From positions 1,801 through 65,800 of the forward strand of contig CASFWW010000023.1 in the NCBI GenBank assembly GCA_949298505.1: a stretch of 64,000 bases of DNA, written 5' to 3'. Below, piece by piece: positions 859 to 19,493 of the stretch. Position 1 is the first letter of the stretch. The number at the start of each line of letters is the position of its first letter. The translations under genes were made by a program, and so were the position numbers. This stretch comes from an uncultured Christensenella sp. GTDB lineage: Bacteria > Bacillota > Clostridia > Christensenellales > UBA3700. The notes under the pieces are model-generated. The model was given only the letters and a program-made list of their open reading frames with translations, ran no database searches and had not been told where the DNA came from.

Positions 859-2046
859 TTACTCCGACAAAAGTCCGACGAGCCTTTCCGCCGCCGTCTT
901 CGTATCCTCAGGACTTCCGAAAGTGGAGAATCTGAAATAGCCCTCGCCGCAAGATCCGAAGCCCTCTCCCGGGGTGCCGACGATCTGTGCCTTTTCGAGA
1001 AGAAAGTCGAAAAATTCCCAGCTGCTCATTCCGCGCGGGCACTTCATCCAGATATACGGCGCGTTCTTGCCGCCGCAATACCATATTCCGAGTTTGTCGA
1101 GCGCGTCGGTCAGATATTTAGCGTTTTTCTTGTATACGGCAATGTTTTGTTTTATCTCTTTCTGCCCTTCTTCTGTAAACACTGCCGCCGCTCCCTTTTG
1201 CAGGATATACGAAACGCCGTTCGTCTTGGTGGTGCGGTTCCTGACCCACATCGCGTTCAGGTTCATCCCCTCTCTTTCAAGCTCTTTGGGGATCACTGTA
1301 TAGCCGCAGCGCGTGCCCGTAAAGCCCGCCGTCTTTGAAAGCGAGCATATCTCTATCGCACACGTTCTTGCGCCTTCTATCTCGAAAATGCTGTGCGGCA
1401 GGCTCTCGTCTTCGATAAACGCTTCGTACGCCGCGTCGAAGAGTATCACCGCGCCGGTTTTGTTGGCGTAGTCCACCCACTTTTTGAGTTTTTCTTTCGT
1501 GAATACCGCGCCGGTGGGATTATTGGGAGAACAGATATAGAGTATCTGCGCGTCTGTGCTCTCGTCCGGAAGGGGCAGAAAGCCGTTTTCCTCTCCCGAA
1601 GCGAGATGGACTATTTTCCTGCCCGCCATCACGTTTGCGTCCACGTAAGCGGGGTATGCCGGTTCGAGAACGAGCGCGGCGTCCGACTTGTCGAACAGAT
1701 CGAGTATGTCGCCGAGTTCGTCGCTTGCACCGCTTGAAACGAACGCCTCGTCCGCTTCTATCTTCACGCCGCGACGCGCATAGTAGTCAGCGACCGCCGT
1801 CCTGAAGAAATGCGCTCCGCATTCAGGCATATATCCGTGGAAGGTCTCCTTTTTCGCCTGATCGTCAACCGCTTCGTGAAGCGCTTTTATTACCTCATTG
1901 CAAAGCGGAAGCGACACGTCTCCGATGCCGAGACGGTAAAGATACGCCCCGTCGTGGCTTTCCACGTAAGCGCGCGTCTTTTGCGCTATTCTGTAAAAAA
2001 GATAAGAATCTTTCAGATTTTCGTAATAATGATTGGGTTTCAGCAT
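859..2046 (-). CDS. dapL: LL-diaminopimelate aminotransferase
   Basis: SYLF...LGIGDV N-terminus, CSPNNPTG, PLP lysine motif SLSKTAGFTGTRCG, TPGEGFG; adjacent to dapF. Confidence 0.93.
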   Translation of the reverse strand: MLKPNHYYENLKDSYLFYRIAQKTRAYVESHDGAYLYRLGIGDVSLPLCNEVIKALHEAVDDQAKKETFHGYMPECGAHFFRTAVADYYARRGVKIEADEAFVSSGASDELGDILDLFDKSDAALVLEPAYPAYVDANVMAGRKIVHLASGEENGFLPLPDESTDAQILYICSPNNPTGAVFTKEKLKKWVDYANKTGAVILFDAAYEAFIEDESLPHSIFEIEGARTCAIEICSLSKTAGFTGTRCGYTVIPKELEREGMNLNAMWVRNRTTKTNGVSYILQKGAAAVFTEEGQKEIKQNIAVYKKNAKYLTDALDKLGIWYCGGKNAPYIWMKCPRGMSSWEFFDFLLEKAQIVGTPGEGFGSCGEGYFRFSTFGSPEDTKTAAERLVGLLSE

Positions 2047-2819
2047 TGAATTTCTCCTTCAAAAACCGTGCGTGCCGGTCCCGTCATAATGACCTTGCCG
2101 TCCTCGCACCTGATGTTGAGCGCTCCTCCGTCCAGAGTCACGTCCACGCTTTTGCCGTCGCAAAGCCCGCTTCTGACCGCCGCCGCAACGCTGGCGCAGG
2201 TGCCCGTTCCGCAAGCCATCGTGATGCCGCTGCCTCTTTCCCAGACGCGCATGCGCAGTTTGTCCTTGCCTGTCACGCTGACGAACTCGACGTTCACGCC
2301 TCCCGGGAAGCGCGGATGCTTTTCAACGAGAGGTCCCACGGTATCCACGGGCGCGCTGTCGGCGTCGTCGACGAAAATCACGGCATGAGGATTGCCGACG
2401 TCAACCGGCACAAATGCTATCCCTCCTGCGACGTCAAGCTTTTCCGGCTCTCCGACGGTGACTTTGCCCATATCCACGGCAACGCTGTCCACCTTGCCGT
2501 CGACGACAAAAAGTTTGAGATACTTTATGCCTGAAAGGGTCTCTACCGCCAGTTCCGTCTTTTTGGTATAGCCTTTGTCATAAACGTATTTGCCCACGCA
2601 ACGTATGCCGTTGCCGCACATTTTAGCTTCGCTGCCGTCCGCGTTGAATATACGCATTTTAAAATCTGCTACGTCTGAAAGGCTTATCAGCACCAAGCCG
2701 TCGCCGCCTATGCCGAAATGACGGTCGGACAGCTTAACGCTGAGCGCTTCGGGATCCTTGGGCGCGCCGTATACGTAGATATAGTCGTTGCCCAGTCCCT
2801 CCATTTTAGTGAATTTCAT
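2040..2819 (-). CDS. dapF: Diaminopimelate epimerase
   Basis: MKFTKMEGLGNDY, NADGSEAKMCGNG, GNPHAV, ERGSGITMACGTG. Confidence 0.96.
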   Translation of the reverse strand: MKFTKMEGLGNDYIYVYGAPKDPEALSVKLSDRHFGIGGDGLVLISLSDVADFKMRIFNADGSEAKMCGNGIRCVGKYVYDKGYTKKTELAVETLSGIKYLKLFVVDGKVDSVAVDMGKVTVGEPEKLDVAGGIAFVPVDVGNPHAVIFVDDADSAPVDTVGPLVEKHPRFPGGVNVEFVSVTGKDKLRMRVWERGSGITMACGTGTCASVAAAVRSGLCDGKSVDVTLDGGALNIRCEDGKVIMTGPARTVFEGEIQC

Positions 2820-2828
2820 AAATTCTCC

Positions 2829-5800
2829 TTATTTGCCGTCAATAGTGGATACGCTTAAGGTTATCTCTTCGAGGACGTCGAGAAGAGCCCTTACCGTATC
2901 GAGCGCGGTGAGCACTGTAACGTTGTTCTCTATCGCGCATTGTCTTATCGCAGAACCGTCGGATATCTTGTTCTCGTTGCTGACGTCGCGGGTATTTATT
3001 ACGTAAGTCACGTAACCCTGACGAATGGAATCGAGGATATCGGTAGACCCCTCGCTTATTTTCTTCATTATACGCGTCTTTATACCGTGGCTCTTAAGGA
3101 ACTTGGCGGTACCTTCCGTAGCCTCTATGTTGAAACCGAGGTTGTAGAACCTGCGTATAAGCGGAAGCGCCTCTTCCTTGTCGCCGTCCGCTATAGTCGC
3201 GAGGACGGTGCCGTAATTCTGAACCTTTACGCCCGAAGCCTGGAGCGCCTTGTACAGCGCGCGGGTCAGGCTCTTGTCGTAGCCTATCGCTTCGCCCGTA
3301 GATTTCATTTCGGGAGACAGGTAGGAATCCATGCCGCGCAGTTTGGAGAAGGAGAACGCGGGAGCTTTAGCGTAGCAACGTTTCTTTTCCTCAGGGTAGA
3401 TAACGTTTATGCCCTGCTCTTTGAGGCTCTTGCCGAGAATGACCAGCGTCGCTATGTCCGCAAGGTCGTAGCCCGTCGCCTTCGAAAGGAACGGCACGGT
3501 ACGCGACGAACGCGGATTGACCTCTATGATGAACACGTTTTCTTCCTTGTCGACTATGAACTGGATATTGAAAAGACCGATTATGCCTATTCCGAGTCCG
3601 AGTTTCTGCGTATAGTCGAGGATAACGTTCTTGACTTTCTGCGATATGGAGAAGGACGGATATACGCTTATCGAGTCGCCCGAGTGAACGCCCGTGCGCT
3701 CTACCAGTTCCATTATGCCGGGAACGAAAACGTCCTTGCCGTCGCAGACCGCGTCGACTTCTACCTCTTTGCCCATGATGTATTTATCGACCAGTACGGG
3801 TTTGTCCTCGTCTATCTCGACCGCCGTCTTAAGGTAATGACGGAGCTGTTCTTCGCCAGCGACTATCCTCATCGCTCTGCCGCCTAAGACGAAGCTGGGA
3901 CGCACGAGAACGGGATAACCTATCTCCTTCGCCGCCGCGATGCCGTCCTCTATCTTAGTGACCGCTCTGCCCTTGGGCTGAGGTATGTTGAGCTCTACGA
4001 GAAGCTTTTCGAACGCGTCGCGGTTTTCAGCCTTTTCTATCGCGTCGCGGTCGGTGCCGATTATTTTTACTCCGCGCGCGCTCAGCGGCTCGGCGAGGTT
4101 TATAGCCGTCTGTCCGCCGAGAGAAGCTATGACGCCTATCGGCTTTTCGAGATCTATCACGTTCATTACGTCTTCGACGCAGAGCGGCTCGAAATACAGC
4201 TTGTCCGAAGTCGTATAGTCGGTGGACACCGTTTCAGGGTTATTGTTGATTATTATCGCCTCGAAGCCCGCTTTCTTTATCGTCTTTACCGCGTGCACTG
4301 TCGAATAGTCGAACTCTACGCCCTGACCTATACGGATAGGCCCGCTGCCGAGAACAACGACTTTCTTTTTATCCGATACGATTGATTCGTTTTCCTGTTC
4401 GTAAGTAGAATAGAAATAAGGGATATAGCTTTCGAACTCTGAAGCGCAGCTGTCTATCATTTTGTAAACGGGCTTTATCCCGCATTTTTCGCGCACGCTT
4501 CTGACCTTTTCTTCTGTAGTTCCCGCGTATTTCGCGACCGACTTATCCGAAAAGCCGAAACGCTTTGCTTCTAAGACCGCTTCGGGGGTCGCGCCCGTCT
4601 TTTCAAGCGAATTTTCTATCTCTACGATATGCTTTATCTTGTGCAGGAAGAAATCGTCTATCGCGGTAGCCGCGTTTATCTCCTCTTCAGTCGCGCCGAG
4701 GCGGAAGAGCTGAGCTATCGCGTATATCCTGTCGTCCGTGCCTATCTTTATATAGTCGGTAAGCGCCTTTTTGTCCATGCCGTCGAACTTAGCCATATAC
4801 ACGTGGTTTACGCCCGTTTCGAGAGAACGCACCGCCTTGAGCAGGCTTTCTTCAAACGTTCTGCCCACGCTCATGACCTCGCCGGTCGCCTTCATCTGCG
4901 TGCCGAGTTTATTGTTCGCGTCCGCGAATTTGTCGAACGGGAAACGCGGCATTTTGGTTACCACGTAGTCGAGTGACGGTTCGAAAGAAGCGGGCGTATT
5001 TGCCAGCATTATTTCATCGAGGTTCATTCCCACGCCTATCTTAGCCGAAACGCGCGCAATCGGATAGCCGCTCGCCTTTGAAGCGAGAGCCGATGAACGC
5101 GAAACGCGGGGGTTTACCTCTATGAGATAGTATTGGAACGACTTGGGATCGAGAGCGAACTGGACGTTGCAGCCGCCCTTTATCTCCAGAGCGCGTATTA
5201 TCTTGAGCGCGCTGTCTCTCAGCATATGGTATTCTCTGTTGGTAAGGGTCTGAGAAGGACATACGACTATACTGTCGCCCGTGTGTATGCCTACGGGGTC
5301 GAGGTTTTCCATGTTACAGATCGTTATCGCGGTGTCGTTGGCGTCGCGCATGACCTCGTACTCTATTTCCTTAAAGCCTTTTATGCTCTTTTCGACCAGC
5401 ACCTGATGGACGGGGGAAAGCGCGAGGGCGTTTTTGATTATCTCCAGAAACTCCTCTTCGTTGTCCGCAAAACCGCCGCCAGTGCCGCCCAGCGTAAACG
5501 CGGGTCTGAGCACTACGGGGTAACCTATGCGTTCCACCGCCTTAAGACCTTCTTCGACGGTATTGGCTATCTCTGAAGGAAGAACGGGCTCTCCGAGAGA
5601 CTGACAGAGTTCTTTGAAAAGCTCTCTGTCTTCAGCTCTCTCTATACTCTTGCTGTTTGTGCCGAGAAGCTCTACGCGGCATTCTCTCAATACGCCTTTC
5701 TTTTCAAGCTGCATAGCAAGGTTGAGACCCGTCTGTCCGCCGATACCCGGGATTATCGCGTCGGGACGCTCGTAGCGGATTATCTTTGCGATATATTCGA

Positions 5801-6003
5801 GGGTCAAAGGCTCCATATACACCTTGTCCGCGATCGACGTATCCGTCATTATCGTAGCGGGGTTGGAGTTGCAAAGCACGACTTCGTAGCCCTCTTCTTT
5901 GAGCGCGAGGCACGCCTGAGTGCCCGCATAGTCGAATTCGGCAGCCTGTCCTATGACGATAGGTCCCGAACCTATAACGAGTATCTTCTTTATGTCGGTA
6001 CGC

Positions 6004-6011
<8 letters not shown>
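2829..6011 (-). CDS. carB: Carbamoyl-phosphate synthase large subunit
   Basis: [30 protein letters not shown], duplicated ATP-grasp halves, C-terminal MGS domain; 1060 aa. Confidence 0.98.
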
Positions 6012-8723
<2,712 letters not shown>

Positions 8724-8733
8724 TTACCGCGAA

Positions 8734-10263
8734 TCACTCCCATTCAACCGTCGCGGGCGGCTTCGAGGTGATGTCGTAGACGACTCTGCCGACAGTCCTC
8801 ACTTCGTTGGTTATTCTGCTGCTCGCCCTTTCGAGTACCTCGTAAGGCAGGCGCGTCCAGTCCGCGGTCATGAAGTCGTCCGTAGTGACCGCTCTGAGCG
8901 CCACCGTATATCCGTAAGTCCTCGCGTCGCCCATAACGCCCACGCTTCTGGTGTCGGTGAGCACCGCAAAGTACTGATTCGTGACACGCTCGAGTCCCGC
9001 GTTCACGACCTCTTCTCTGAAGATCGCGTCCGCCTCTCTCAGCGTATCGAGTTTTTCTTTGGTTATCTCCCCGATAACTCTTATCGCGAGACCGGGACCC
9101 GGGAATGGCTGACGCCATACCAGGTCCGCGGGGATACCCAGCTCAGTGCCCACCGCGCGCACTTCGTCCTTGAACAGCTCGCGCAGCGGTTCTATTATCT
9201 CGTCGAAATCTATAACGCTGGGCAGTCCGCCGACGTTGTGATGGCTCTTTATCGTCGAAGCGTCGCCCGCGCCGCTCTCTATCACGTCGGGGTAAATGGT
9301 ACCCTGTACGAGATAGTTCACCTTGCCGATCTTCTTAGCCTCGCGCTCGAAAACGCGTATGAATTCTTCGCCTATTATCTTGCGCTTCTTTTCGGGTTCG
9401 GTTACCCCTTTGAGCTTTTCGAGGAACAGATCCTCTACGTTCACTCTTATTATGTTCATGTCGAAACGCTTTTTGAAAGTGCGCTCCACCATGTCTCCTT
9501 CGTCCTTTCTCAGCAGACCGTGATCGACGAAAACGCAGGTAAGGTCGGATCCTATCGCCTTGTGAAGAAGCACAGCCGCGACCGACGAATCAACGCCGCC
9601 CGAAAGCGCGCACAGCACTTTTTTGCCCTTGAGCTGCTTTGCATACTTTTCGACCGCCTCTTTAGCAAAGTCCGACATCTTCCAGTCGCCCGAACACTTG
9701 CATATCGCGAAAAGGAAGTTGTGAAGCATTCTCTTGCCGTATACCGTATGTGTGACCTCGGGGTGGAACTGCACCGCATATATGCTCTTTCCGTCGCTCA
9801 TCGCCGCGCACGGGCAATGCTGAGTAGTCGCGGTGACGGTAAAGCCGTCGGGCACGCACTTTATATAGTCGGTATGGCTCATCCAGCATATGCTCTTTTC
9901 GGGTACTCCCTCGAACAACGGGTCGTCTTTGACTGAAAGCTCTATCTTGCCGTATTCGCCCAAAGCGCCCGCGCTGCATATTTCGCCGCCCGTAAGCCAC
10001 GCGGTCAGCTGCGCGCCGTAACATATCCCCAGTACGGGAATGCCCAGTTCAAGCACTTTTTTGTCGCAATGCGGCGACTTTTCGTCGTAAACGCTGTTGG
10101 GTCCGCCGGTAAATATAATGCCCTTGTAACCCTCTGCGGCTATCTCTTCCGCGGTGATCTTGTTGTACGGTTTTATCTCGGCGTACACGTTCTGTTCGCG
10201 CACTCTGCGCGCAATCAGCTGGTTGTACTGTCCGCCGAAATCGAGTACCAGAATTTTTTCCAT
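8734..10263 (-). CDS. guaA: GMP synthase (glutamine-hydrolysing)
   Basis: [46 protein letters not shown] at 10263 chosen from the GAGG RBS. Confidence 0.97.
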
Positions 10264-10295
10264 ATATATGCCTCTCAAATATATTTTTTACTTCT

Positions 10296-11873
10296 TTATT
10301 TTCCGCTGTCGCCGTAGTTGGAAAGCACTCTCGCGGACGGGTCGGATACGTCGCAGCCCTTCCAGCTCTTGTTGGGCATCCAGAAGTCCTTTATCATCTC
10401 TCCCTGCCCCGGATAGTACTTTTCGAATATCTCTCTGTATAACAACGATTCTTTGGTGAACGGGCGCGCGTGCGCATACCGCGCGCGCTTTTCTTCGTAT
10501 TCTTTATCCGAATAATACCCGTCTGCGTACTCTTTCAGATAGTCGACCATCGAGTGCCCGACCGCGTCCGAAAAAGCCGCCTTTTCTCTCATCAGTATGT
10601 CGTAAGGGAGCCAGTCTCCTTCAAACGCCTTTCTCAGAAGATACTTGCCCTTTCCGTACACGTTCATCTTTATCGCGGGATCCAGACTCATTACGTATTT
10701 CACGAAATCCAGATCTCCGAAAGGCACCCTCGCTTCAAGCGAGTTGACCGATATGCACCTGTCCGCGCGCAGCACGTCGTACATATAAAGTTCTCTCACT
10801 CGCTTTTGAGCTTCCTTCTGAAACTCTTCCGCGCTCGGCGCGAAATCGGTGTACTTGTAGCCGAAAAGTTCGTCTGAGATCTCTCCGGTCAGGAGCACTC
10901 TTATGTCCGTCGTCTCGTGTATCGCCTTGCAGACCAGATACATGCCTATGCTGGCGCGCACGGTCGTTATATCGAAAGTGCCCAGTATTTTAATTACCGT
11001 ATCGAGCGCCGCCAGAACTTTTTCCTTGTCGATTATGACCTCTGTATGCTCGCTGCCGATATAGTCAGCAACTTCGCGGGCATACCTCAAGTCTATCGCG
11101 TCGCCGCTCATGCCTATCGAAAAGGTCTTTATCGGCTTTGCGCTTTTTTTTGCCGCGACTGCGCATACCAGAGAAGAATCAAGTCCTCCGCTCAGAAGAA
11201 AGCCAACTTTCGCGTCGGCTATAAGGCGTTTTTCTATTCCGGCAACCAGTTTTTCGCGTATCTTCGCGCAGGCTTCCTCTACGCCGTCTTTACTGACTTC
11301 TTCAACAGCGGCGATATCGCAATATCTTACAAACTTTTCGCCGTCGTAGTAACAGCCGGGAGGAAAAGGCATGATCCTGTCCGTCAGCCCGACAAGGTTG
11401 ATCGCCTCGCTCGCGAACATGATCGCGCCAGTTTCGTCGTAACCGTAGAAAAGCGGTCTTATCCCGATCGGATCCCTCGCGGCAACGAATCTACCGCGCT
11501 TTGCGTCGTATATCACAAGGGCATATTCCGCATCCAGCATAGCGAACGTGTCCGTTCCGTACTCCTTATAGAGAGGCAGGAGCACCTCGCAGTCCGAATC
11601 GCTTCTGAACGCATACTTGCCTTCAAGCGCCTTTCTGAATTTGTCGAAGCCGTATATCTCGCCGTTGCATACGATGTAGTCTCCGTCAAGACAAAACGGT
11701 TGCATTCCCTCGGGCGTAAGCCCCATGATCGCGAGCCTGTGGAAGCCCAAAAGCCCGGCGCCGGTATCAACGATCCTGCTGTCGTCAGGACCCCTCGACA
11801 CGGTGCGCGAAAAACCTTCTTCGAATTTCTCGCGCGGCGCGTCGCTCCGGCAATATGCCATTATCGAACACAT
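10296..11873 (-). CDS. asnB: Asparagine synthase (glutamine-hydrolysing)
   Basis: N-terminal MC (Ntn nucleophile), RGPD, NGEIY, LSGGLDSS, LEARVPF. Confidence 0.95.
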   Translation of the reverse strand: MCSIMAYCRSDAPREKFEEGFSRTVSRGPDDSRIVDTGAGLLGFHRLAIMGLTPEGMQPFCLDGDYIVCNGEIYGFDKFRKALEGKYAFRSDSDCEVLLPLYKEYGTDTFAMLDAEYALVIYDAKRGRFVAARDPIGIRPLFYGYDETGAIMFASEAINLVGLTDRIMPFPPGCYYDGEKFVRYCDIAAVEEVSKDGVEEACAKIREKLVAGIEKRLIADAKVGFLLSGGLDSSLVCAVAAKKSAKPIKTFSIGMSGDAIDLRYAREVADYIGSEHTEVIIDKEKVLAALDTVIKILGTFDITTVRASIGMYLVCKAIHETTDIRVLLTGEISDELFGYKYTDFAPSAEEFQKEAQKRVRELYMYDVLRADRCISVNSLEARVPFGDLDFVKYVMSLDPAIKMNVYGKGKYLLRKAFEGDWLPYDILMREKAAFSDAVGHSMVDYLKEYADGYYSDKEYEEKRARYAHARPFTKESLLYREIFEKYYPGQGEMIKDFWMPNKSWKGCDVSDPSARVLSNYGDSGK

Positions 11874-11883
11874 AAGCCCTCCG

Positions 11884-13977
11884 TTATCTTACGCCGAACA
11901 GCAGTTCTCCGTAAGTGGGCACCGGCCAGTATTCGGACGCGGTTTGAGTTTCCGCCTCGTCCACTACCGCCCTGAGAGCGCTCATTCTGGGAAGGATCGC
12001 GTCCCTGATATAGTCCGCTTCGGATATTATATCACAAAAATCCCTGACGTGAACGACAGCTTCTTTAAGTTCTGCCGTACAAGCCGCTGCGCGGTCTACC
12101 GATCCTGACAGCTTTTTTGCCAGCCCGTGTTCGTAATCACAACTTATATCAGGCATGAAATTTTTCTTGGAAATTGCCGTTTCGCAAATTTTCGAAACGT
12201 ATTTTTCTATCGCCGGAACAAGCTGTCTCTCCGCCATGTCAACCATCGTCTCAGCTTCTATAAGCACCGCTTTGCAATAGTTGTCCAGCATTATGTCGCA
12301 CCTAGATCTAAGCTCCGTCTCAGTGTAAACGCCCTGAGATGTCAGCATGTCCACGTTCTTCTTGTCGAGAAGGTGCGGCATACAGTCGGGTGTGGTGCGG
12401 TAGTTGGAAAGACCTCTCCTCTCAGCTTCTTTTATCCATGCTTCGTCGTAACCGTTGCCGTTGAAGATGATGCGTTTGTGATCCTTGATCGTCTTCTTTA
12501 TCATAAGGTGCAGAGCCGTGTTGAAATCCTCCACTCCTTCAAGCCTGTCGGCATACTGTTTCAGACTCTCCGCGACCGCGGCGTTCAGCATGATGTTCGC
12601 GCACGCAATGCTGTTGGACGAACCGAGCATTCTGAATTCGAACTTGTTGCCGGTGAACGCAAACGGCGACGTTCTGTTTCTGTCCGTCGTATCCTTCTGG
12701 AAAAGAGGGAGAACGTCCACGCCCAGTTTGAGCTGAGTCTTTTTCTTTCCGCTGTACGGCTTGTCGTTTTCTATCGCTTCGAGCACTGCCGTGAGTTCGT
12801 CGCCGAGGAATACCGAAAGCACTGCGGGCGGAGCTTCGTTCGCGCCCAGTCTGTGGTCGTTGCCTGCGGTTGCGACCGCGATCCTGAGCAGATCCTGATA
12901 GTCGTCCACGGCTTTGAGAACCGCGCAAAGGAAAAGCAGGAACTGCGCGTTCTCATACGGCGTTTCGCCCGGAGTGAGCAGGTTTACTCCCTTGTCCGTC
13001 GCCATGGACCAGTTGTTGTGTTTGCCGCTGCCGTTTACGCCCGCAAACGGTTTTTCATGCAACAGGCATACAAGTCCGTGACGGGAAGCGACCTTCTGCA
13101 TTATCTCCATGGTCAGCTGGTTGTGATCGGTCGCGATGTTCGTCGTGCTGTATATGGGCGCAAGCTCGTGCTGAGCGGGAGCGACTTCGTTGTGCTCGGT
13201 TTTCGCAAGTATGCCCAGTTTCCACAGTTCCTCGTTCAGGTCTGCCATGAAAGCTTCCACTCTGGGCTTGATCACGCCGAAGTAATGGTCGTCAAGTTCC
13301 TGCCCCTTGGGAGGCTTGGCTCCGAACAGGGTGCGGCCGGTATATATCAGGTCCTTTCTCTTGTCGTACATTTCCTTGTCTATAAGGAAATATTCCTGCT
13401 CGGGTCCCACCGAAGTGCGCACGCATTTGACGTTCGTGTTGCCGAACAGCTTCAATATTCTCATAGCCTGCCTGTTCAGCGCTTCCATAGAACGCAGGAG
13501 CGGGGTCTTTTTATCCAGCGCTTCGCCGCCGTACGAACAGAACGCCGTCGGTATGCAGAGCGTCTTTCCTTTTATGAACGCGTAAGACGTCGGGTCCCAC
13601 GCCGTGTAACCTCTCGCTTCGAACGTCGCCCTGAGTCCTCCCGACGGGAAGCTGGACGCGTCAGGTTCGCCTTTTATCAGCTCCTTGCCCGAAAACTCCA
13701 TAATCACCCTGCCGTCGGGCGCGGGAGTTATGAAGCTGTCGTGCTTTTCGGCGGTTATACCGGTAAGAGGCTGAAACCAGTGCGTGTAGTGCGTCGCGCC
13801 GTGAGCGATCGCCCAGTCTTTCATGGCATTCGCGACCGCGTTGGCTACCGAGATGTCGAGTTGCGACCCTCTGTCGATGGTTCTTTTGAGAGATCTGTAC
13901 ACGTCCGCAGACAACGTTGCTCTCATTACTCTGTCGTCAAAGACCATGCTGCCGAAATAGTCCGATACCGTTTGCAT
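11884..13977 (-). CDS. glnN: Glutamine synthetase type III
   Basis: [72 protein letters not shown] at 13977 follows an AGGAG RBS. Confidence 0.95.
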
Positions 13978-13998
13978 AATTTTATTCTCCTTTTCAAT

Positions 13999-14052
13999 AA
14001 AAAAGGGCAATGGCGCCTATGCTTTTCAACATAGACGCCATTGCCCGTTTGA
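13999..14052 (-). terminator. Leader attenuator terminator of the glnN operon with an overlapping ANTAR-type hairpin
   Basis: Minus strand: GGGCAATGGCGTCTATGTT-GAAA-AGCATAGGCGCCATTGCCC followed by TTTTTT. It lies between the promoter and the glnN RBS; the 5' arm contains GGC-AATGGC-GTC (AxxG hexaloop). Confidence 0.8.
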
Positions 14053-14064
14053 TTTATGTTTCGG

Positions 14065-14093
14065 ATTATACACAACGCGAAATGGTTTGTCAA
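14065..14093 (-). promoter_or_regulatory. sigmaA promoter of the glnN operon
   Basis: TTGACA-17 nt-TATAAT, perfect consensus on the minus strand. Confidence 0.85.
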
Positions 14094-14161
14094 CGAATTT
14101 CAACAAATTCACATAAAAAAATTTTTTGTCCCTTTTCTCCTCTTTTTTTGATTGTTTTATG

Positions 14162-14191
14162 TTGACTATCTTTTTCCCCCCGTGCTATAAT
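14162..14191 (+). promoter_or_regulatory. sigmaA promoter of the glutamate synthase/ANTAR operon
   Basis: TTGACT-18 nt-TATAAT with an extended -10 TG. Confidence 0.75.
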
Positions 14192-14194
14192 CTG

Positions 14195-14259
14195 TCAAAC
14201 GGGCAAAGGCGTTCGTTTTTGAGGATAACTGTCCTTAAAAACGCGCCTTTGCCTTTTTT
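14195..14259 (+). terminator. Leader attenuator terminator of the glutamate synthase operon with an overlapping ANTAR-type hairpin
   Basis: GGCAAAGGCG...CGCCTTTGCC long hairpin followed by TTTTTT; alternative hairpin AAACGGGC-AAAGGC-GTTCGTTT. Confidence 0.8.
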
Positions 14260-14283
14260 ATTGCAAAAAAGAGAGGATTTTAT

Positions 14284-15378
14284 ATGTTATTGAAAGAAGG
14301 TCAGATAAGGATCCCGTCGGGTTGTGCGGTTTCCGCGGTCATATCCCGAAGCGGCGAACTGATGAGCGGCGAAAAAATCGTCGCCAGCATGGTCCCGATG
14401 CACGAACGCTCAAACGGACTGGGCGGCGGCTTCGCAGGTTACGGGATATACCCGGATATGGCGGAGTTTTACGCCTTTCATATGTTTTTCGAAAACAGAG
14501 AAAGCCAGAAACAGTGCGAAGCTTATCTTAAAGAAGGCTTCGAGATAGTAAAAGCGGAGCCCATGCCGGTGCGCAAGACCCCGGCGATAACGGACGAACC
14601 GATAATATTCAGATATTTCCTGTCTCCTCTCCGCTCACGTATAGCCGACGCGCAGGTGGACGAACGCGAATTCGTCGCGCGCGCGTCAATCCATATAAAC
14701 GTATGCATAAAAGGCGCTTACGTGGTTTCGGGCGGAAAGAACATGGGCGTGTTCAAGGCGGTGGGCTTCCCGGAAGACGTCGGAGAGTTTTACCGCCTGG
14801 ACGAATATTCCGCTTACTGCTGGACGGCGCACGGCAGGTACCCGACCAACACACCCGGCTGGTGGGGCGGCGCACACCCGTTCGGGCTTCTCGATTACAC
14901 GGTCGTCCACAACGGCGAGATATCTTCTTACGACGCAAACCGCAGATATATCGAAGGATACGGATATAAATGCACCTTGCAGACAGATACCGAAGTTTTC
15001 ACTTATATCGCCGATTACCTTATCCGCAGAAAGGGGCTTACTCCTGAAGAGACGGCTAGCGTCATCGCCGCGCCGTTCTGGTCGACGATAGAAAACAAAC
15101 CGCCCGTGGAAAGAAAAAAACTGACCTATCTCAGAAACGTATTTTCCGGACTGCTCGTCACAGGTCCGTTCTCGATAATACTCGGATTCACGGGCGGACT
15201 TATGGCGCTCAACGACAGACTCAAACTCCGTTCCATGGTCGTTGCGGATAAGGACGACAGAGTTTTCATCGCAAGCGAAGAAGCGGCGATCAGGGTCATG
15301 GAGCCCGACGCTGCGAACGTGCGCGCACCCGAGGGCGGCGAACCCGTCGTAGTAAGAGTTGAGGAGGGCAGATACTGA
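14284..15378 (+). CDS. Class II glutamine amidotransferase, amidotransferase subunit of a split glutamate synthase (GltB1-like)
   Basis: SGCAV, ERSNGLGGGF, AHGRYPTN, GAHPF, VHNGEISSY, TDTEV, DRLKLR. Confidence 0.88.
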   Translation: MLLKEGQIRIPSGCAVSAVISRSGELMSGEKIVASMVPMHERSNGLGGGFAGYGIYPDMAEFYAFHMFFENRESQKQCEAYLKEGFEIVKAEPMPVRKTPAITDEPIIFRYFLSPLRSRIADAQVDEREFVARASIHINVCIKGAYVVSGGKNMGVFKAVGFPEDVGEFYRLDEYSAYCWTAHGRYPTNTPGWWGGAHPFGLLDYTVVHNGEISSYDANRRYIEGYGYKCTLQTDTEVFTYIADYLIRRKGLTPEETASVIAAPFWSTIENKPPVERKKLTYLRNVFSGLLVTGPFSIILGFTGGLMALNDRLKLRSMVVADKDDRVFIASEEAAIRVMEPDAANVRAPEGGEPVVVRVEEGRY

Positions 15379-16883
15379 TGCAGACAGATTATATATATCC
15401 GACTTACGAAGTCGTAAGAAACGACCGCAGATGCAACTGCTGCGGACTGTGCGTACGCGAATGTTCGTACGGCGTGCACTACCGCTCGGAAGACGGCAGA
15501 TTCGTCTTGTCCGACGACTCAAAATGCGTGAACTGTCAGCGTTGCGTAGCGACCTGCCCGTCTCACGCGTTGAAGATAGTAAAAAGCAACTGCGATTTCA
15601 GAGAAAACGCGAACTGGTCGGGAGACTCGATCAAGGAGATAATGAAGCAAGCCGGAAGCGGCGGCGTGCTGCTCTCTTCTATGGGCAATCCTCAGCCGTA
15701 CCCGGTTTACTGGGATAAACTTCTGATCAACGCGTCGCAGGTCACCAACCCGCCGATAGATCCTCTGAGAGAGCCCATGGAGACGCGCGTTTTCCTGGGA
15801 AAGAAACCTTCTGAAATAGCGAGAGACGAACACGGGCAGCTGATTTCTGATCTTCCGCCACGTCTTACGCTGGAACTTCCGATACTCTTTTCTGCAATGA
15901 GTTACGGCTCTATCAGCTACAACGCTCACGCGGCGCTCGCCGGCGCGGCGACAGAGCTGGGCACCTGCTACAATACGGGCGAAGGAGGTCTGCACGAGAA
16001 CTTTTACCGCTACGGCGCGAACACGATCGTACAGGTTGCTTCCGGCAGATTCGGCGTGCACAAAGACTACCTCGAAGCGGGCGCGGCTATTGAGATAAAA
16101 ATGGGTCAGGGCGCAAAGCCCGGCATCGGCGGTCACCTGCCCGGTTCAAAGATAGTCGGCGACGTGTCGCGCACCAGAATGATACCCGAAGGCTCGGACG
16201 CGATATCCCCCGCTCCTCACCACGACATATATTCGATAGAAGACCTCCGTCAGCTCGTGTTCTCGCTGAAAGAAGCGACCGGATACAAAAAACCCGTCAT
16301 CGTCAAGATAGCCGCAGTGCATAACGTTGCCGCGATAGCCAGCGGCATAGCGAGAAGCGGCGCGGACGTCATCGCGATCGACGGTTTCAGAGGCGGCACC
16401 GGCGCGGCTCCTACGCGTATCAGAGACAACGTGGGCATACCCGTAGAACTCGCTCTCGCCGCAGTCGACACGAGGCTCAGAGACGAAGGCATAAGAAACG
16501 ACGTCTCGCTTATAGTCGGCGGAAGCATACGAAATTCGACAGACGTAGTCAAAGCCGTCGCTCTCGGTGCGGACGCCTGCTATATCGCGACCGCCGCCCT
16601 TATCGCGATGGGCTGCCATATGTGCAGAAACTGCCAGAGCGGCAAATGCAACTGGGGTATAGCGACCCAGAATCCCGAACTCGTAAAACGTCTCGACCCC
16701 GAAGAAGGTCGCCGCCGCTTAGTCAATCTGCTGACGGCATGGAAACACGAGATAACCGAAATAATGGGCGGCATGGGCATCAACTCGATAGAAGCGCTAC
16801 GAGGCAACAGGCTCATGCTTCGCGGTATAGGGCTTACCGAAAAGGAACTTTCCGTACTCGGCGTAGCTCACGCGGGAGAATAA
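15378..16883 (+). CDS. Glutamate synthase FMN-binding subunit with N-terminal 2x[4Fe-4S] domain (GltB2-like)
   Basis: Two CxxCxxCxxxC motifs, AMSYGS, NTGEGG, QVASGRFG, EIKMGQGAKPGIGGHLPG, SPAPHHDIYSIEDL, CHMCRNCQSGKCNWGIAT. Confidence 0.92.
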   Translation: MQTDYIYPTYEVVRNDRRCNCCGLCVRECSYGVHYRSEDGRFVLSDDSKCVNCQRCVATCPSHALKIVKSNCDFRENANWSGDSIKEIMKQAGSGGVLLSSMGNPQPYPVYWDKLLINASQVTNPPIDPLREPMETRVFLGKKPSEIARDEHGQLISDLPPRLTLELPILFSAMSYGSISYNAHAALAGAATELGTCYNTGEGGLHENFYRYGANTIVQVASGRFGVHKDYLEAGAAIEIKMGQGAKPGIGGHLPGSKIVGDVSRTRMIPEGSDAISPAPHHDIYSIEDLRQLVFSLKEATGYKKPVIVKIAAVHNVAAIASGIARSGADVIAIDGFRGGTGAAPTRIRDNVGIPVELALAAVDTRLRDEGIRNDVSLIVGGSIRNSTDVVKAVALGADACYIATAALIAMGCHMCRNCQSGKCNWGIATQNPELVKRLDPEEGRRRLVNLLTAWKHEITEIMGGMGINSIEALRGNRLMLRGIGLTEKELSVLGVAHAGE

Positions 16884-16923
16884 TCCGTTATTCCGTAGTC
16901 AAATCCAAAGGAGGTATGTTATA

Positions 16924-17646
16924 ATGATCGTATTAAACGCGCGTGCGACCGACAACGCCGCACTTAACGAAATGATAAGAAGCTCGAAAGAAGATTGCGA
17001 AATAGTCGGATGCCTGGGCGAGAGATTTATCGGCGCCGGACTTGCGGACAGGACCCTGACGCTAAAAGGCATCCCCGGCAACGCGCTGGGCGCCTACCTC
17101 GACGGCGCGAAAATATACGTTGAGGGAAACGCGCAGGATGCCGTCGGCGACACTATGAACGGCGGCGAGATCGTGATAAACGGAAGCGCAGGCGACGCGC
17201 CGGGATACGCTATGCGCGGAGGCAAGATCTATATTAAAGGCAACGCGGGCTACCGCGCCGGCATCCATATGAAAGAATACGACGGCAAATTCCCCGTCAT
17301 GATAATCGGCGGCAGATGCGGCAGCTTTATGGGAGAATACCAGGCTGGCGGGCTTATAATCGTGCTGGGGCTCAACGACGACGGCAAACGCATAGTCGGA
17401 AACTTCCCCTGCGCGGGCATGCACGGCGGCAAGGTGCTTCTGAGAGGAAACGCGGAGGGCGTGAATTTTCCGGGCAAAGTCACTGCAAAAACCGCCACCT
17501 GCGAAGATATGCTCGCAGCCGAAGGTTATATAAAAGAGTTCTGCGCCGCGTTCGGCATGGACGAAAACGAGGTGCTCTCTTCTCCGTTCACGGTCGTGAC
17601 CCCGGACAGCGCGAACCCGTACAAACGCATGTATGTAGAAAACTAA
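16924..17646 (+). CDS. Glutamate synthase C-terminal GXGXG beta-helix subunit (GltB3-like)
   Basis: Repeated G..M.GG.I.I.G motifs (MNGGEIVING, MRGGKIYIKG, GEYQAGG, MHGG). Confidence 0.88.
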   Translation: MIVLNARATDNAALNEMIRSSKEDCEIVGCLGERFIGAGLADRTLTLKGIPGNALGAYLDGAKIYVEGNAQDAVGDTMNGGEIVINGSAGDAPGYAMRGGKIYIKGNAGYRAGIHMKEYDGKFPVMIIGGRCGSFMGEYQAGGLIIVLGLNDDGKRIVGNFPCAGMHGGKVLLRGNAEGVNFPGKVTAKTATCEDMLAAEGYIKEFCAAFGMDENEVLSSPFTVVTPDSANPYKRMYVEN

Positions 17647-17661
17647 CACAAAGGTGATATC

Positions 17662-18873
17662 ATGAAATATACGTCAAGCGAAGTTCTTCAATACGTCAGA
17701 GAGGAGGACGTAAAGTTCATCCGTCTCGCGTTTACCGACGTCTTCGGAAATCAGAAAAACATCTCGGTGATGCCCGCCGAACTCGACCGCGCATTCAGGT
17801 TCGGCATAGCCATCGACGCGTCAGCCATCGCCGGTTTCGGCGACGTGGCTCACAGCGATCTTTTCCTGCACCCCGACCCGTCCACTCTTACGGTACTGCC
17901 GTGGAGACCGGAACACGGCAAGGTTGTCAGGATGTTCTGTTCCGTGCTCTGCCCTGACGGCTCCCCGTTCGTAGCGGATACGCGCGGCATACTTATCAAA
18001 GCGGTCGAAGCGGCTAAGAAAAAAGGCTATTCCTTCAACTTCGGCACAGAAATGGAATTTTATCTGTTCAGGCTTGACGAACACGGCTATCCCACGAAAA
18101 TACCTTATGACAACGCAGGCTATATGGACGTCGCTCCTTTAGACAGAGGCGAAAACGTACGGAGGGAGATCTGCCTTACCTTAGAGCAGATGGGCATCAT
18201 GCCCGAAGGCTCTCACCACGAGGAAGGTCCCGGGCAGAACGAGATAGACTTCCGCTACTCCGACGCTCTGACAGCCGCAGACAATGCGGTGACTTTTCGC
18301 TCCGTAGTGCAGACGATCGCGGCAAGGAACGGGCTTTTCGCCGACTTTTCAGCCAAGCCGCTCGCGGACGAACCGGGCAACGGTCTGCATATAAACGTGT
18401 CCGTAGACGGCGCGAAGCACGAGGAGACGATCCCTTTCGTGATTGCGGGCATACTCGATAAGATACGCGATATCACCGTATTCCTCAATCCGACAAAAGA
18501 CTCTTATGCGCGCCTTGGCAACAACAAGGCTCCCCGCTATATCTCATGGTCGGGCGAAAACCGCTCTCAGCTGATAAGGATCCCCGCAGCCGTCGGCGAA
18601 TACAGACGTGCGGAACTTCGCTCCCCCGACTCTCAGGCAAATCCTTACCTCGCGTTCGCCCTTATGATATACGCGGGACTGTACGGCATTGAAAACAAAC
18701 TGCCGCTACCCGCGCCCGCGGACATAAATCTGTATACCGCAGATAAAAAAACGCTTGAAAAATTCGCGACCATCCCCTCGGGACTCAACGAGGCGGTCGA
18801 GGCGGCAAAGACGAGCGACTTCGTTTCTCTCTGCCTGCCATCAGAAGTGATCGCGGCGTACTGCAAAAGCTGA
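17662..18873 (+). CDS. Glutamine synthetase type I-like protein, shortened, with active-site changes
   Basis: VKFIRLAFTD, GTEMEFYLF, HHEEGPGQNE, LHIN, NRSQLIRIP, RAELRSPD. 403 aa; the usual GYEAP flap reads GNNKAP. Confidence 0.85.
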   Translation: MKYTSSEVLQYVREEDVKFIRLAFTDVFGNQKNISVMPAELDRAFRFGIAIDASAIAGFGDVAHSDLFLHPDPSTLTVLPWRPEHGKVVRMFCSVLCPDGSPFVADTRGILIKAVEAAKKKGYSFNFGTEMEFYLFRLDEHGYPTKIPYDNAGYMDVAPLDRGENVRREICLTLEQMGIMPEGSHHEEGPGQNEIDFRYSDALTAADNAVTFRSVVQTIAARNGLFADFSAKPLADEPGNGLHINVSVDGAKHEETIPFVIAGILDKIRDITVFLNPTKDSYARLGNNKAPRYISWSGENRSQLIRIPAAVGEYRRAELRSPDSQANPYLAFALMIYAGLYGIENKLPLPAPADINLYTADKKTLEKFATIPSGLNEAVEAAKTSDFVSLCLPSEVIAAYCKS

Positions 18874-18908: not shown

Positions 18909-19493
18909 ATGGACTTTAAAGAACGTGTTTACAGCGTACTTACTGTTTCTGACGGAGAGAAGTTTTCCGCTTCTCTTTCTCCTTTGCTCCCCGAAAGAAC
19001 CTTTTCACCGGTGATAAGGGTGTCCGACTCCGCGACCGCAAAGCGCGCGATGCTTGAAAGAGAGTACGATATCGTGCTTATCAACGGCACCCGCGCCGAC
19101 GACCGCGCCGCAAAACTCGCGATAGACGTCTGCACGGACAAAGGCTGCGTCGCCATACTCTTCGTCAGGCGCGAGCTGTATGCGGAAATATACGCAAAAG
19201 TGTCCGACTTCGGCGTGCTGACTCTTCCCCTCCCGTCCTCCCCCCAGATGGTTGTCCAGGCGCTTGACTGGGCGCGCGCGACCAGAGAACGTATGCGCCG
19301 CTACCAGAAATCCGCACAGACCGTCGAACAGAAAATGGAGGAGATCCGCATCGTCAACAGGGCGAAGTGGCTGTTGATCGACGTCCTCAAAATGACCGAA
19401 GCCGACGCTCACCGCTACATAGAAAAACAGGCGATGGACAGATGCGTTTCAAAACTCGAAGTCGCAAAAGGCATCCTGAACACTTACAAATGA
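18909..19493 (+). CDS. ANTAR-domain antiterminator with a pseudo-receiver domain (AmiR/NitR-like)
   Basis: C-terminal IVNRAKWLLI...MTEADAHRYIEKQAMD ANTAR signature; N-terminal REC-like fold with YDIVLIN. Confidence 0.9.
   Translation: MDFKERVYSVLTVSDGEKFSASLSPLLPERTFSPVIRVSDSATAKRAMLEREYDIVLINGTRADDRAAKLAIDVCTDKGCVAILFVRRELYAEIYAKVSDFGVLTLPLPSSPQMVVQALDWARATRERMRRYQKSAQTVEQKMEEIRIVNRAKWLLIDVLKMTEADAHRYIEKQAMDRCVSKLEVAKGILNTYK

Follow-up and report, generated by a model that had tools for sequence, protein, structure and literature searches.

A single-hexaloop leader hairpin as the putative ANTAR target of divergent nitrogen-assimilation operons in an uncultured Christensenella and related Clostridia

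Antitermination by ANTAR proteins is taught, and searched for, as a system of two hairpins. A pair of divergent leaders in the DNA of an uncultured Christensenella sp. raises the question of whether one hairpin can serve instead. The leaders lie in the intergenic region (13978-14283) between two divergent operons of a 64,000-nt stretch, referred to here as the window (CASFWW010000023.1, from an assembly of 1.84 Mb that is 86% complete). One leader precedes glnN, the gene for a type III glutamine synthetase, on the minus strand, and the other precedes genes for glutamate synthase on the plus strand, in an operon whose last gene encodes a NitR-like ANTAR protein. An earlier note on this locus had proposed that each leader holds a one-hairpin ANTAR target, and the proposal is supported by covariation in the stem, by the lack of a conserved second hexaloop hairpin, and by co-occurrence of the element with orthologues of the ANTAR protein. 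With a probability of about 0.68, both leaders are protein-dependent attenuators in which the NitR-like ANTAR protein acts on a single hairpin.

The repeated element consists of TCAAACGGGCAATGGCGT on the minus strand (14052..14035) and TCAAACGGGCAAAGGCGT on the plus strand (14195..14212), and the positions and 17/18 identity given for these 18-mers in the earlier note were reproduced. The 15-nt core AAACGGGCAAWGGCG, allowing up to two mismatches, matches the window four times, at the two sites and at the mirrored 3' arms of their terminators; shuffled sequences gave a mean of 0.55, and 0/100 shuffles reached four. Across the whole assembly, matches to AAACGGGCAAWGGCG without a mismatch occur at these two sites only. 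Three sites with one mismatch elsewhere in the genome (C22, C34, C46) fall inside open reading frames (ORFs), one mraY-like, one efp-like and one other, and were rejected.

Each copy follows a near-consensus promoter, as had also been noted, and three promoter-like sites were found where 0.9 would be expected. The promoter of the glnN operon matches the consensus at 12/12 positions, with a -35 TTGACA (14088..14093, minus strand), a 17-nt spacer and a -10 TATAAT (14065..14070); its predicted +1 is at about 14057-14059. The plus-operon promoter (14162..14191) matches at 11/12, with a -35 TTGACT at 14162-14167, an 18-nt spacer that carries a TG (TGnTATAAT) and a -10 TATAAT at 14186-14191, and would start transcription at about 14197-14199. 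Both +1 positions assume the usual spacing of 6-8 nt after the -10 box.

Within about 6-20 nt of each promoter comes a hairpin with an AAWGGC hexaloop. The putative antiterminator hairpin of the minus leader, H(minus) (14026..14052), is made up of GGGC (14046-14043), the loop AAUGGC (14042-14037) and GUCU (14036-14033), which gives 4 bp and a possible outer helix UCAA/UUGA. Its putative counterpart in the plus leader, H(plus) (14197..14218), pairs AAACGGGC (14197-14204) with GUUCGUUU (14211-14218) around the loop AAAGGC (14205-14210); it has 8 bp and a folding energy of -6.5 kcal/mol (z -3.4; 2/200 shuffles as good). A covariance model of the element, R1, built from homologous leaders, scores the two at 31.2 and 27.7 bits, respectively. 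The hexaloop, whose first base is A and whose fourth is G (A1/G4), is as first described, but the plus hairpin is an 8-bp rather than a 3-bp structure. Given this longer hairpin, the AAACG "flank" is simply the 5' stem strand in the plus leader, which removes the separate helper role suggested for (UC)AAACG; nor is this flank conserved outside the genus, where the consensus is AAAGGC or AAUGAGC.

Both hairpins share their bases with strong intrinsic terminators. In the minus leader the terminator (13999..14046) consists of a 19-bp stem (14046-14005) and a T6 tract (14004-13999), with an energy of -36.1 kcal/mol (z -8.75), and its 5' arm encloses the entire inner hairpin. The terminator of the plus leader (14201..14259) has a stem at 14201-14254, a T6 tract at 14254-14259 and an energy of -35.1 kcal/mol (z -8.7); its 5' arm, 14201-14226, covers most of H(plus). 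Because each hairpin sits within the 5' arm of a terminator, the two folds are mutually exclusive, as the earlier note had held. The terminator is favoured by about 30 kcal/mol (hairpins at -6.5 and -3.1 kcal/mol against terminators at -35.1 and -36.1) unless the hairpin is held by something, and the predicted default state is therefore OFF.

The yardstick for such leaders is the definition of Ramesh et al. 2012 (PMC3369931), in which ANTAR targets are dual hairpins. The window leaders have the A1/G4 hexaloop of that definition (AAAGGC and AAUGGC), their hairpins share bases with the terminator 5' arm on both sides, and the element occurs in ANTAR-encoding genomes. Two tandem hairpins with a short linker are absent, and because of this the leaders are counted as a variant. 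On the strength of the sequence comparisons that follow, they are taken to represent a genuine variant of ANTAR antitermination that is widespread and uses one hairpin.

Homologues of the ANTAR protein are numerous in uncultured Christensenellaceae, Oscillospiraceae, Lachnospiraceae and other Clostridia. Of 600 candidate stretches, 584 were confirmed as loci with such a homologue, and the best 80 loci were retained. The regular expression GGCAANGGCGTY followed by a T-run has 63 matches in these 80 loci and the window, one of them inside an ORF, and a structural scan of the loci yielded 81 units. Both a promoter (at most 2 mismatches) and a terminator (below -10 kcal/mol) accompany 55 of the units.

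The units fall into two stem classes that share one loop. In class I the stem AAAGGC/GUCUUU encloses the loop AANGGC and is found upstream of glnN, of a 444-aa putative gdhA (a label read from its N-terminal sequence) and of an asnB-like gene, and in class II the stem AAUGAGC/GUUCAUU encloses AAAGGC upstream of a gltB-like gene. The genus of the window uses a local AACGGGC variant of both. More than 30 loci have classes I and II back to back as in the window, which indicates that the mirror image is ancestral to the lineage and not the product of a local duplication.

How close the hairpin lies to the promoter is central to the question of one hairpin or two. From the end of the -10 box to the start of the 7-nt stem the 55 units have 5 nt (one unit), 6 nt (five), 7 nt (16), 8 nt (15), 9 nt (ten), 10 nt (six), 11 nt (one) or 12 nt (one), with a mode of 7-8 nt. 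At this spacing the hairpin begins a few nucleotides from any plausible +1, and an upstream hairpin cannot fit. The lack of space ahead of the hairpin, which had been pointed out for the plus leader, is thus a general property of these leaders.

A canonical dual-hairpin target could still be formed if the second hexaloop came from an upstream start, from a cryptic fold in or after the terminator, or in trans, and EutV does require its first hairpin, P1 (PMC3369931). Promoters that match the consensus at 11-12 of 12 positions and a stem at a fixed 5-12 nt in the 55 units speak against an upstream start. As to cryptic folds, a second hairpin of at least 3 bp with an ANNGNN hexaloop (the published definition) is absent between the -10 box and the T-run in 45/55 homologous leaders, and both window leaders have no such hairpin besides H between the -10 box and the T-tract. 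The other 10/55 leaders hold an extra ANNGNN hairpin, against 5.4 expected from shuffles, but its places and loops differ from leader to leader; a second hexaloop hairpin within the leaders was accordingly rejected as near chance and unconserved. After each window terminator, the U-tract (U6), AUUG(C/A)A and the A-rich ribosome binding site (RBS) can be drawn as an A1/G4 hexaloop hairpin (14254-14271 on the plus strand, 14004-13987 on the minus strand). This fold is probably due to chance and was rejected, because it is lost in the closest relatives, namely in the minus leader of L010 and in both leaders of L012. The sequence TTTTTTATTG, identical after both terminators (13999-14004 and 14254-14263) and able to pair with the A-rich RBS region, is shared between the leaders as first reported, but it is not conserved in the same three leaders.

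Tandem arrangements are found in one of the two classes. Whereas 0/25 class II (gltB-type) leaders have a second unit, 15/27 class I (glnN-type) leaders of the relatives carry a second unit of hairpin and terminator 65-170 nt downstream; the window is single on both sides. These tandem units favour a dual-hairpin target at first sight, but each has its own terminator and they stand at least 65 nt apart, and an extension of the linker by 20 nt kills EutV action (PMC8934654). The gltB-type leaders are single in 25/25 units. On the whole, a hidden dual-hairpin target is very improbable. The tandem glnN-type leaders are those of loci L027, L030, L031, L035, L040, L043, L045, L048, L054, L061, L064, L070, L073, L082 and L089, and their second units often have the variant loops AAUGAC, AAUGGG or AAUGGA.

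If there is one hairpin, is it under selection as a hairpin? Covariation was examined in 58 distinct 36-nt segments, gathered by sequence alone and with no pairing requirement. In this set of related sequences, in which the collecting pattern fixes the inner three pairs and the loop positions, 89.4% of the cells in the 7-bp helix are paired, compared with 81.9 +/- 1.0% in shuffles (none of 500 as high) and 40-62% in the registers obtained by sliding the 3' strand. The three outer pairs, which the regular expression leaves free, show 7, 6 and 6 double (compensatory) changes. Among the stem variants are AAAGGC/GUCUUU, UGAAGGC/GUCUUCG, AUAAGGC/GUCUUAG, AAUGAGC/GUUCAUU, GAUGAGC/GUUCAUC and AACGGGC/GUUCGUU, and divergent leaders add the stems AUAAAC/GUUUAU, AAAGAC/GUCUUU and GGC/GCC beneath the same kind of loop. 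Within the loop, R1 matches outside the seed carry any base at position 3, in some cases A instead of G at position 5, and in some U, G or A instead of C at position 6; position 1 is changed once (GAUGGC), and positions 2 and 4 never. This pattern fits the published A1/G4 rule for ANTAR targets (PMC3369931). The energetic imbalance of the window leaders also recurs, the 55 units having medians of -5.2 kcal/mol for the hairpin and -23.2 kcal/mol for the terminator, and 8-28 nt (median 15) are transcribed between the end of the hairpin and the first competing base.

These observations bear on the proposal that there is no switch at all, and that the structures are constitutive leader terminators, or 5' hairpins that stabilise the transcript, alike by shared descent or by gene conversion from one divergent leader to the other. 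The 17/18 identity of the window copies would suit this proposal, as would the weakness of H(minus) on its own and the presence of a similar hairpin and terminator in front of an unrelated gene, for a membrane protein, at another place in the genome. Yet a constitutive terminator of -35 kcal/mol behind a consensus promoter would silence essential nitrogen-assimilation genes, different families of Clostridia keep the loop sequence and show covariation in the stems, and the element is confined to genomes that have the regulator. Of the accounts considered here this is the least probable, and it is hardly to be credited.

The regulator itself is a 194-aa NitR-like protein encoded by the last gene of the plus operon (18909..19493, plus strand), the sole ANTAR gene found in the 86%-complete assembly. 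Its C-terminus matches PF03861 with 53.6 bits against a cut-off of 27.3 (E 1.9e-14), and its layout is that of a pseudo-receiver followed by a coiled coil and the ANTAR domain. Profile matches include Rv1626 (1s8n, 2.5e-18), AmiR, EutV (6wsh) and NasR, the AmiR structure 1qo0 matching with E values of 1.2e-4 and 3.6e-7. The N-terminal half aligns to receiver domains (Rv1626 1s8n, EutV 6wsh), but the phospho-acceptor Asp at the end of beta-3, which marks a response regulator of the REC-ANTAR (EutV/GnfR) type, is lacking: the position aligned to the Asp of "VIMD" in Rv1626 and of "VLMD" in EutV is occupied by N59, invariant in 34/34 members. The invariant Asn identifies the domain as a pseudo-receiver like that of AmiR. 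In the ANTAR domain, K153 and H168, also invariant in 34/34, align by the authors' own count to Lys149 (K of "AKG") and Tyr164 (Y of "EAYQ") of EutV, which are its contacts to G4 of the loop (PMC8934654). AmiR likewise has a His at the position of EutV Tyr164.

Since the pseudo-receiver is not phosphorylatable at the canonical position, the regulator is probably controlled by a protein partner. A glutamine synthetase of 402-405 aa, with catalytic motifs that look intact, is encoded directly upstream of the ANTAR gene in 47/50 loci. Its adjacency, taken with the invariant Asn, suggests a pair of enzyme-sensor and antiterminator; most plausibly, the short glutamine synthetase would be the sensor partner that reports glutamine status to the regulator.

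If the ANTAR protein reads the leaders, the two should be found in the same genomes. With a cut-off of E <= 1.2e-4, R1 has matches in 23/61 related genomes, and orthologues of the regulator (at least 46% identity) are present in 18/61. Of the 18 orthologue genomes 17 have an R1 match, and in 16 of them match and gene share a contig and lie 1.3-7 kb apart. The remaining six matched genomes have a distant ANTAR paralogue only, or none. Their matches (G020, G033, G048, G030, G040 and G059) were rejected, as none shows the layout of promoter, hairpin and terminator: five lie in apparent coding sequence or are without a terminator, and one is within an ordinary terminator after a gene. True units therefore track the ANTAR orthologue among the 61 related genomes, an outcome in keeping with the earlier note, which had envisaged a covariance model of this kind. 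In the genus of the window, orthologue and leader are both present in 10/15 genomes and both absent from 5/15; the five congeners without the orthologue (G001, G002, G003, G008, G010) have an ANTAR paralogue of 32-35% identity and no strong R1 match. In three of these five the paralogue lies in longer open frames, of 370-458 aa.

Co-occurrence of this kind could also arise if the attenuators are real but are read by another factor, such as a different RNA-binding protein, the glutamine synthetase or a small ligand, the link to ANTAR reflecting a shared nitrogen regulon. Neighbours in the operon, for example the short glutamine synthetase of 47/50 loci, co-occur with the element as tightly as the ANTAR gene does; the hairpin is short, and binding by the ANTAR protein is itself deduced from sequence. 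Rfam, moreover, is without an ANTAR-target family for comparison, and no known riboswitch was matched: when 13500-14800 was scanned with Rfam 15, the 17 matches at E <= 10 included none at the gathering score, and the best match, Plastid-psbA-1 (37.8 bits where 54.3 are needed), is a generic long hairpin. Against another reader, the hexaloop retains the ANTAR signature, and its core is that of the site bound by the ANTAR regulator GnfR (PMC2995071). A 22-nt hairpin has no ligand pocket, leaders of roughly 60 nt are too small for a leader peptide ORF, and within one genus presence and absence follow the NitR-like orthologue (10 with both, 5 with neither). A reader other than the ANTAR protein is thus unlikely.

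The reading of the leaders as one-hairpin ANTAR attenuators gains or loses by comparison with known systems, of which that of EutV serves as the reference. In the eutP, eutG, eutS and eutA leaders of Enterococcus faecalis, as in the window, an A1/G4 hexaloop hairpin overlaps the terminator 5' arm and termination is the default (PMC3369931, PMC8934654), and EutV resembles the window regulator in its receiver-like N-terminus, coiled coil and ANTAR domain. The two differ in that EutV targets comprise P1 and P2 with a constrained short linker, P1 being required, whereas each window leader has one hairpin a few nucleotides from the predicted +1; EutV is phosphorylated on Asp54, where the window family has an invariant Asn. 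Walshe et al. 2022 (PMC8934654) redefined the minimal binding motif, the ANTAR dimer contacting a single hexaloop and binding isolated hairpins. They retained the order of P1 then P2 for antitermination, and expected single-hexaloop sites where the timing of the polymerase is irrelevant.

A close parallel to the RNA site comes from Geobacter. Ueki and Lovley 2010 (PMC2995071) described a site, CAGGCAANGGCGCC, that overlaps the leader terminators of nitrogen genes and to which phosphorylated GnfR bound in gel-shift assays. In the GnfK/GnfR system of Geobacter sulfurreducens (nifH, glnK and amtB leaders) the core GGC-AANGGC-G of this site is the same as in the window, and the systems agree in a site that adjoins or overlaps the leader terminator, in nitrogen-assimilation genes and in an ANTAR regulator. 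The gel shifts also showed binding to RNA with one such site. Differences lie in the RpoN promoters of the Geobacter leaders, in a true response regulator activated by phosphorylation, and in flanks of GCC where the leaders here have GUC or GUU.

Gene order points to NitR of Clostridium saccharobutylicum (Stutz et al. 2007), which is cited as an ANTAR antiterminator of GS/GOGAT (glutamine synthetase and glutamate synthase) genes (PMC6316151, PMC4676874). In glnA-nitR-gltAB, as here, the gene for a small ANTAR protein immediately follows one for glutamine synthetase and lies next to glutamate synthase genes, and it is this order to which the window is likened. Antitermination at the GS/GOGAT genes when nitrogen is limiting has been proposed for NitR, whose system also involves antisense RNA. 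AmiC-AmiR of Pseudomonas aeruginosa and NasS-NasT resemble the window in a receiver-like domain that lacks the phospho-acceptor. There the regulator is sequestered by a partner protein, and the partners are ligand sensors that resemble periplasmic binding proteins, whereas the conserved neighbour in the window family is a glutamine synthetase. Targets of the AmiR/NasT type are listed as dual hairpins in a review (PMC12591593).

The same gene context had in fact been met before. Table S2 of Ramesh et al. 2012 includes GS/ANTAR/GOGAT clusters of Alkaliphilus, Desulforudis, Carboxydothermus and Caldicellulosiruptor, but its matches came from a two-hairpin model, 45-60 nt long, while the window leaders have one hairpin. 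For Clostridium thermocellum the table has an amtB match only, yet the species has an ANTAR gene and a GS-GOGAT cluster (PMC4676874), which would fit one-hairpin leaders that escape a dual-hairpin search. No description of a one-hairpin ANTAR attenuator class or of the NitR leader was found in the literature searched, from which subscription papers and bioRxiv supplements were left out, and PMC1913097 holds nothing on nitrogen leaders.

From the computed sequences, exclusive folds, conservation, covariation, promoter spacing and co-occurrence, a mechanism can be put forward in which we infer the start sites, the binding, the read-through, the signal and the partner. Left to itself, the nascent RNA would fold into the very stable terminator, and transcription would end about 60 nt after the start. 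When active, presumably under nitrogen or glutamine limitation, the NitR-like ANTAR protein would bind the single 5'-terminal hairpin through its AANGGC hexaloop and the closing C-G and G.U pairs and keep it closed. The closed hairpin would keep the terminator stem from forming its lower 11-19 bp, and RNA polymerase would then read through into glnN and the glutamine-consuming genes on the minus strand, and into the genes for glutamate synthase, the short glutamine synthetase and the regulator on the plus strand. As the regulator's gene is on the plus transcript, the circuit would be autoregulatory. Each terminator would have one hexaloop hairpin, with no counterpart of "P1", the hairpin that serves for recruitment further upstream in EutV, NasR and AmiR leaders. 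Control of the regulator by the co-transcribed short glutamine synthetase is proposed by analogy with AmiC-AmiR, NasS-NasT and GS-TnrA. More speculatively, the long terminators, with their 8-28 nt to the first competing base, may buy the time that P1 gives elsewhere.

Several points weigh against this account. Deletion of P1 abolishes eutP induction (PMC3369931), and antitermination by EutV is lost when 20 nt are added to the P1-P2 linker (PMC8934654); because EutV depends on P1 and on a short linker, one hairpin may be too little here unless an unseen factor helps. The positions of the start sites are predictions from the promoter consensus, H(minus) alone is no more stable than shuffled sequence (-3.1 kcal/mol, z 0.18), and the tandem units of the 15 glnN-type leaders depart from the single layout. 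The collections were driven by a regular expression or a model, so that the search itself accounts in part for why the inner stem and loop positions 2 and 4 do not vary, and related genomes are non-independent observations. The evidence for the glutamine synthetase as partner is its adjacency, which makes it a candidate. Co-occurrence is also weaker in a class-level sample of 150 genomes, with 45 candidates scored per genome: the orthologue (at least 43% identity) is found in 15 and an R1 match in 12, with an overlap of seven, so that 7/15 orthologue genomes have a match. Of the matches in the five genomes without an orthologue, those in G091, G093, G150 and G185 are false, and the one in G157 looks real. 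A targeted look at the nine orthologue loci without a match (eight from the class-level sample, and G034) found a one-hairpin leader in four and none within about 9 kb in five.

The wider implication can be stated only tentatively. It is possible, at somewhat less than even odds, that a large clade of gut and rumen Clostridia runs its core nitrogen regulon (glnN, gdhA, asnB and glutamate synthase) through one-hexaloop ANTAR attenuators at the very 5' end of the transcript, with P1, which is regarded as necessary, dispensable in nature and a pseudo-receiver switched by a short glutamine synthetase that acts as a glutamine-sensing trigger enzyme. Both the 2012 covariance model and the table of a 2025 review hold dual hairpins only (PMC3369931; PMC12591593). 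A conserved one-hairpin class would offer a direct test of the mechanistic need for P1, and would explain why dual-hairpin searches should fail to pick up the nitrogen regulons of abundant gut Clostridia (Christensenellales, Oscillospirales, Lachnospirales). The leader would also be a compact switch of roughly 60 nt under protein control, and it points to how these anaerobes may place an enzyme that makes glutamine and five amidotransferases that consume it under one common signal.

The operons behind the two leaders were delimited from ORFs and Pfam matches. The regulated minus operon (859..13977) has eight genes in the order glnN, asnB, guaA, pyrG, carA, carB, dapF and an aminotransferase gene, with intergenic gaps of -8 to 19 nt. 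Its first product has the GSIII_N and Gln-synt_C domains; the RBS AAAAGGAG (13994-13987) and the ATG of glnN (13977-13975) together occupy 13975..13994 on the minus strand. The glnN attenuator thus stands at the head of a tightly packed operon that combines a producer of glutamine with five glutamine-amidotransferase consumers (AsnB, GuaA, PyrG and CarA/CarB), DapF and an aminotransferase, an unusual "make and spend glutamine" unit with one leader for all.

On the plus strand, a family search identified a three-ORF glutamate synthase of archaeal type (14284..17646), gltB-like, made up of a GATase_2-like ORF (14284-15378), a Glu_synthase/FMN ORF (15378-16883) and a GXGXG ORF (16924-17646). The short type I glutamine synthetase that follows (17662..18873; 403 aa; Gln-synt_C/N) scores 334.8 bits on TIGR00653, under the cut-off of 429, and precedes the ANTAR gene.

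A third candidate leader lies elsewhere in the same genome, on contig C47 (locus L093, 1441-1530, plus strand). It has TTGACA and TATAAT at a spacing of 17 and, 15 nt on, a GGGGC/GUCC stem with the loop AACGGA, which lies in a terminator of -33.1 kcal/mol with a T6 tract; R1 caught its mirror strand only, at 20.5 bits. Downstream are genes for a membrane protein of 192 aa and for a glycosidase of family GH30, with no obvious link of either to nitrogen. Between the divergent promoters of the window, finally, an A/T-rich stretch (14094-14161) includes AAAAAAATTTTTT and has similar counterparts in L010 and L012; it may represent shared UP elements or a protein-binding site.

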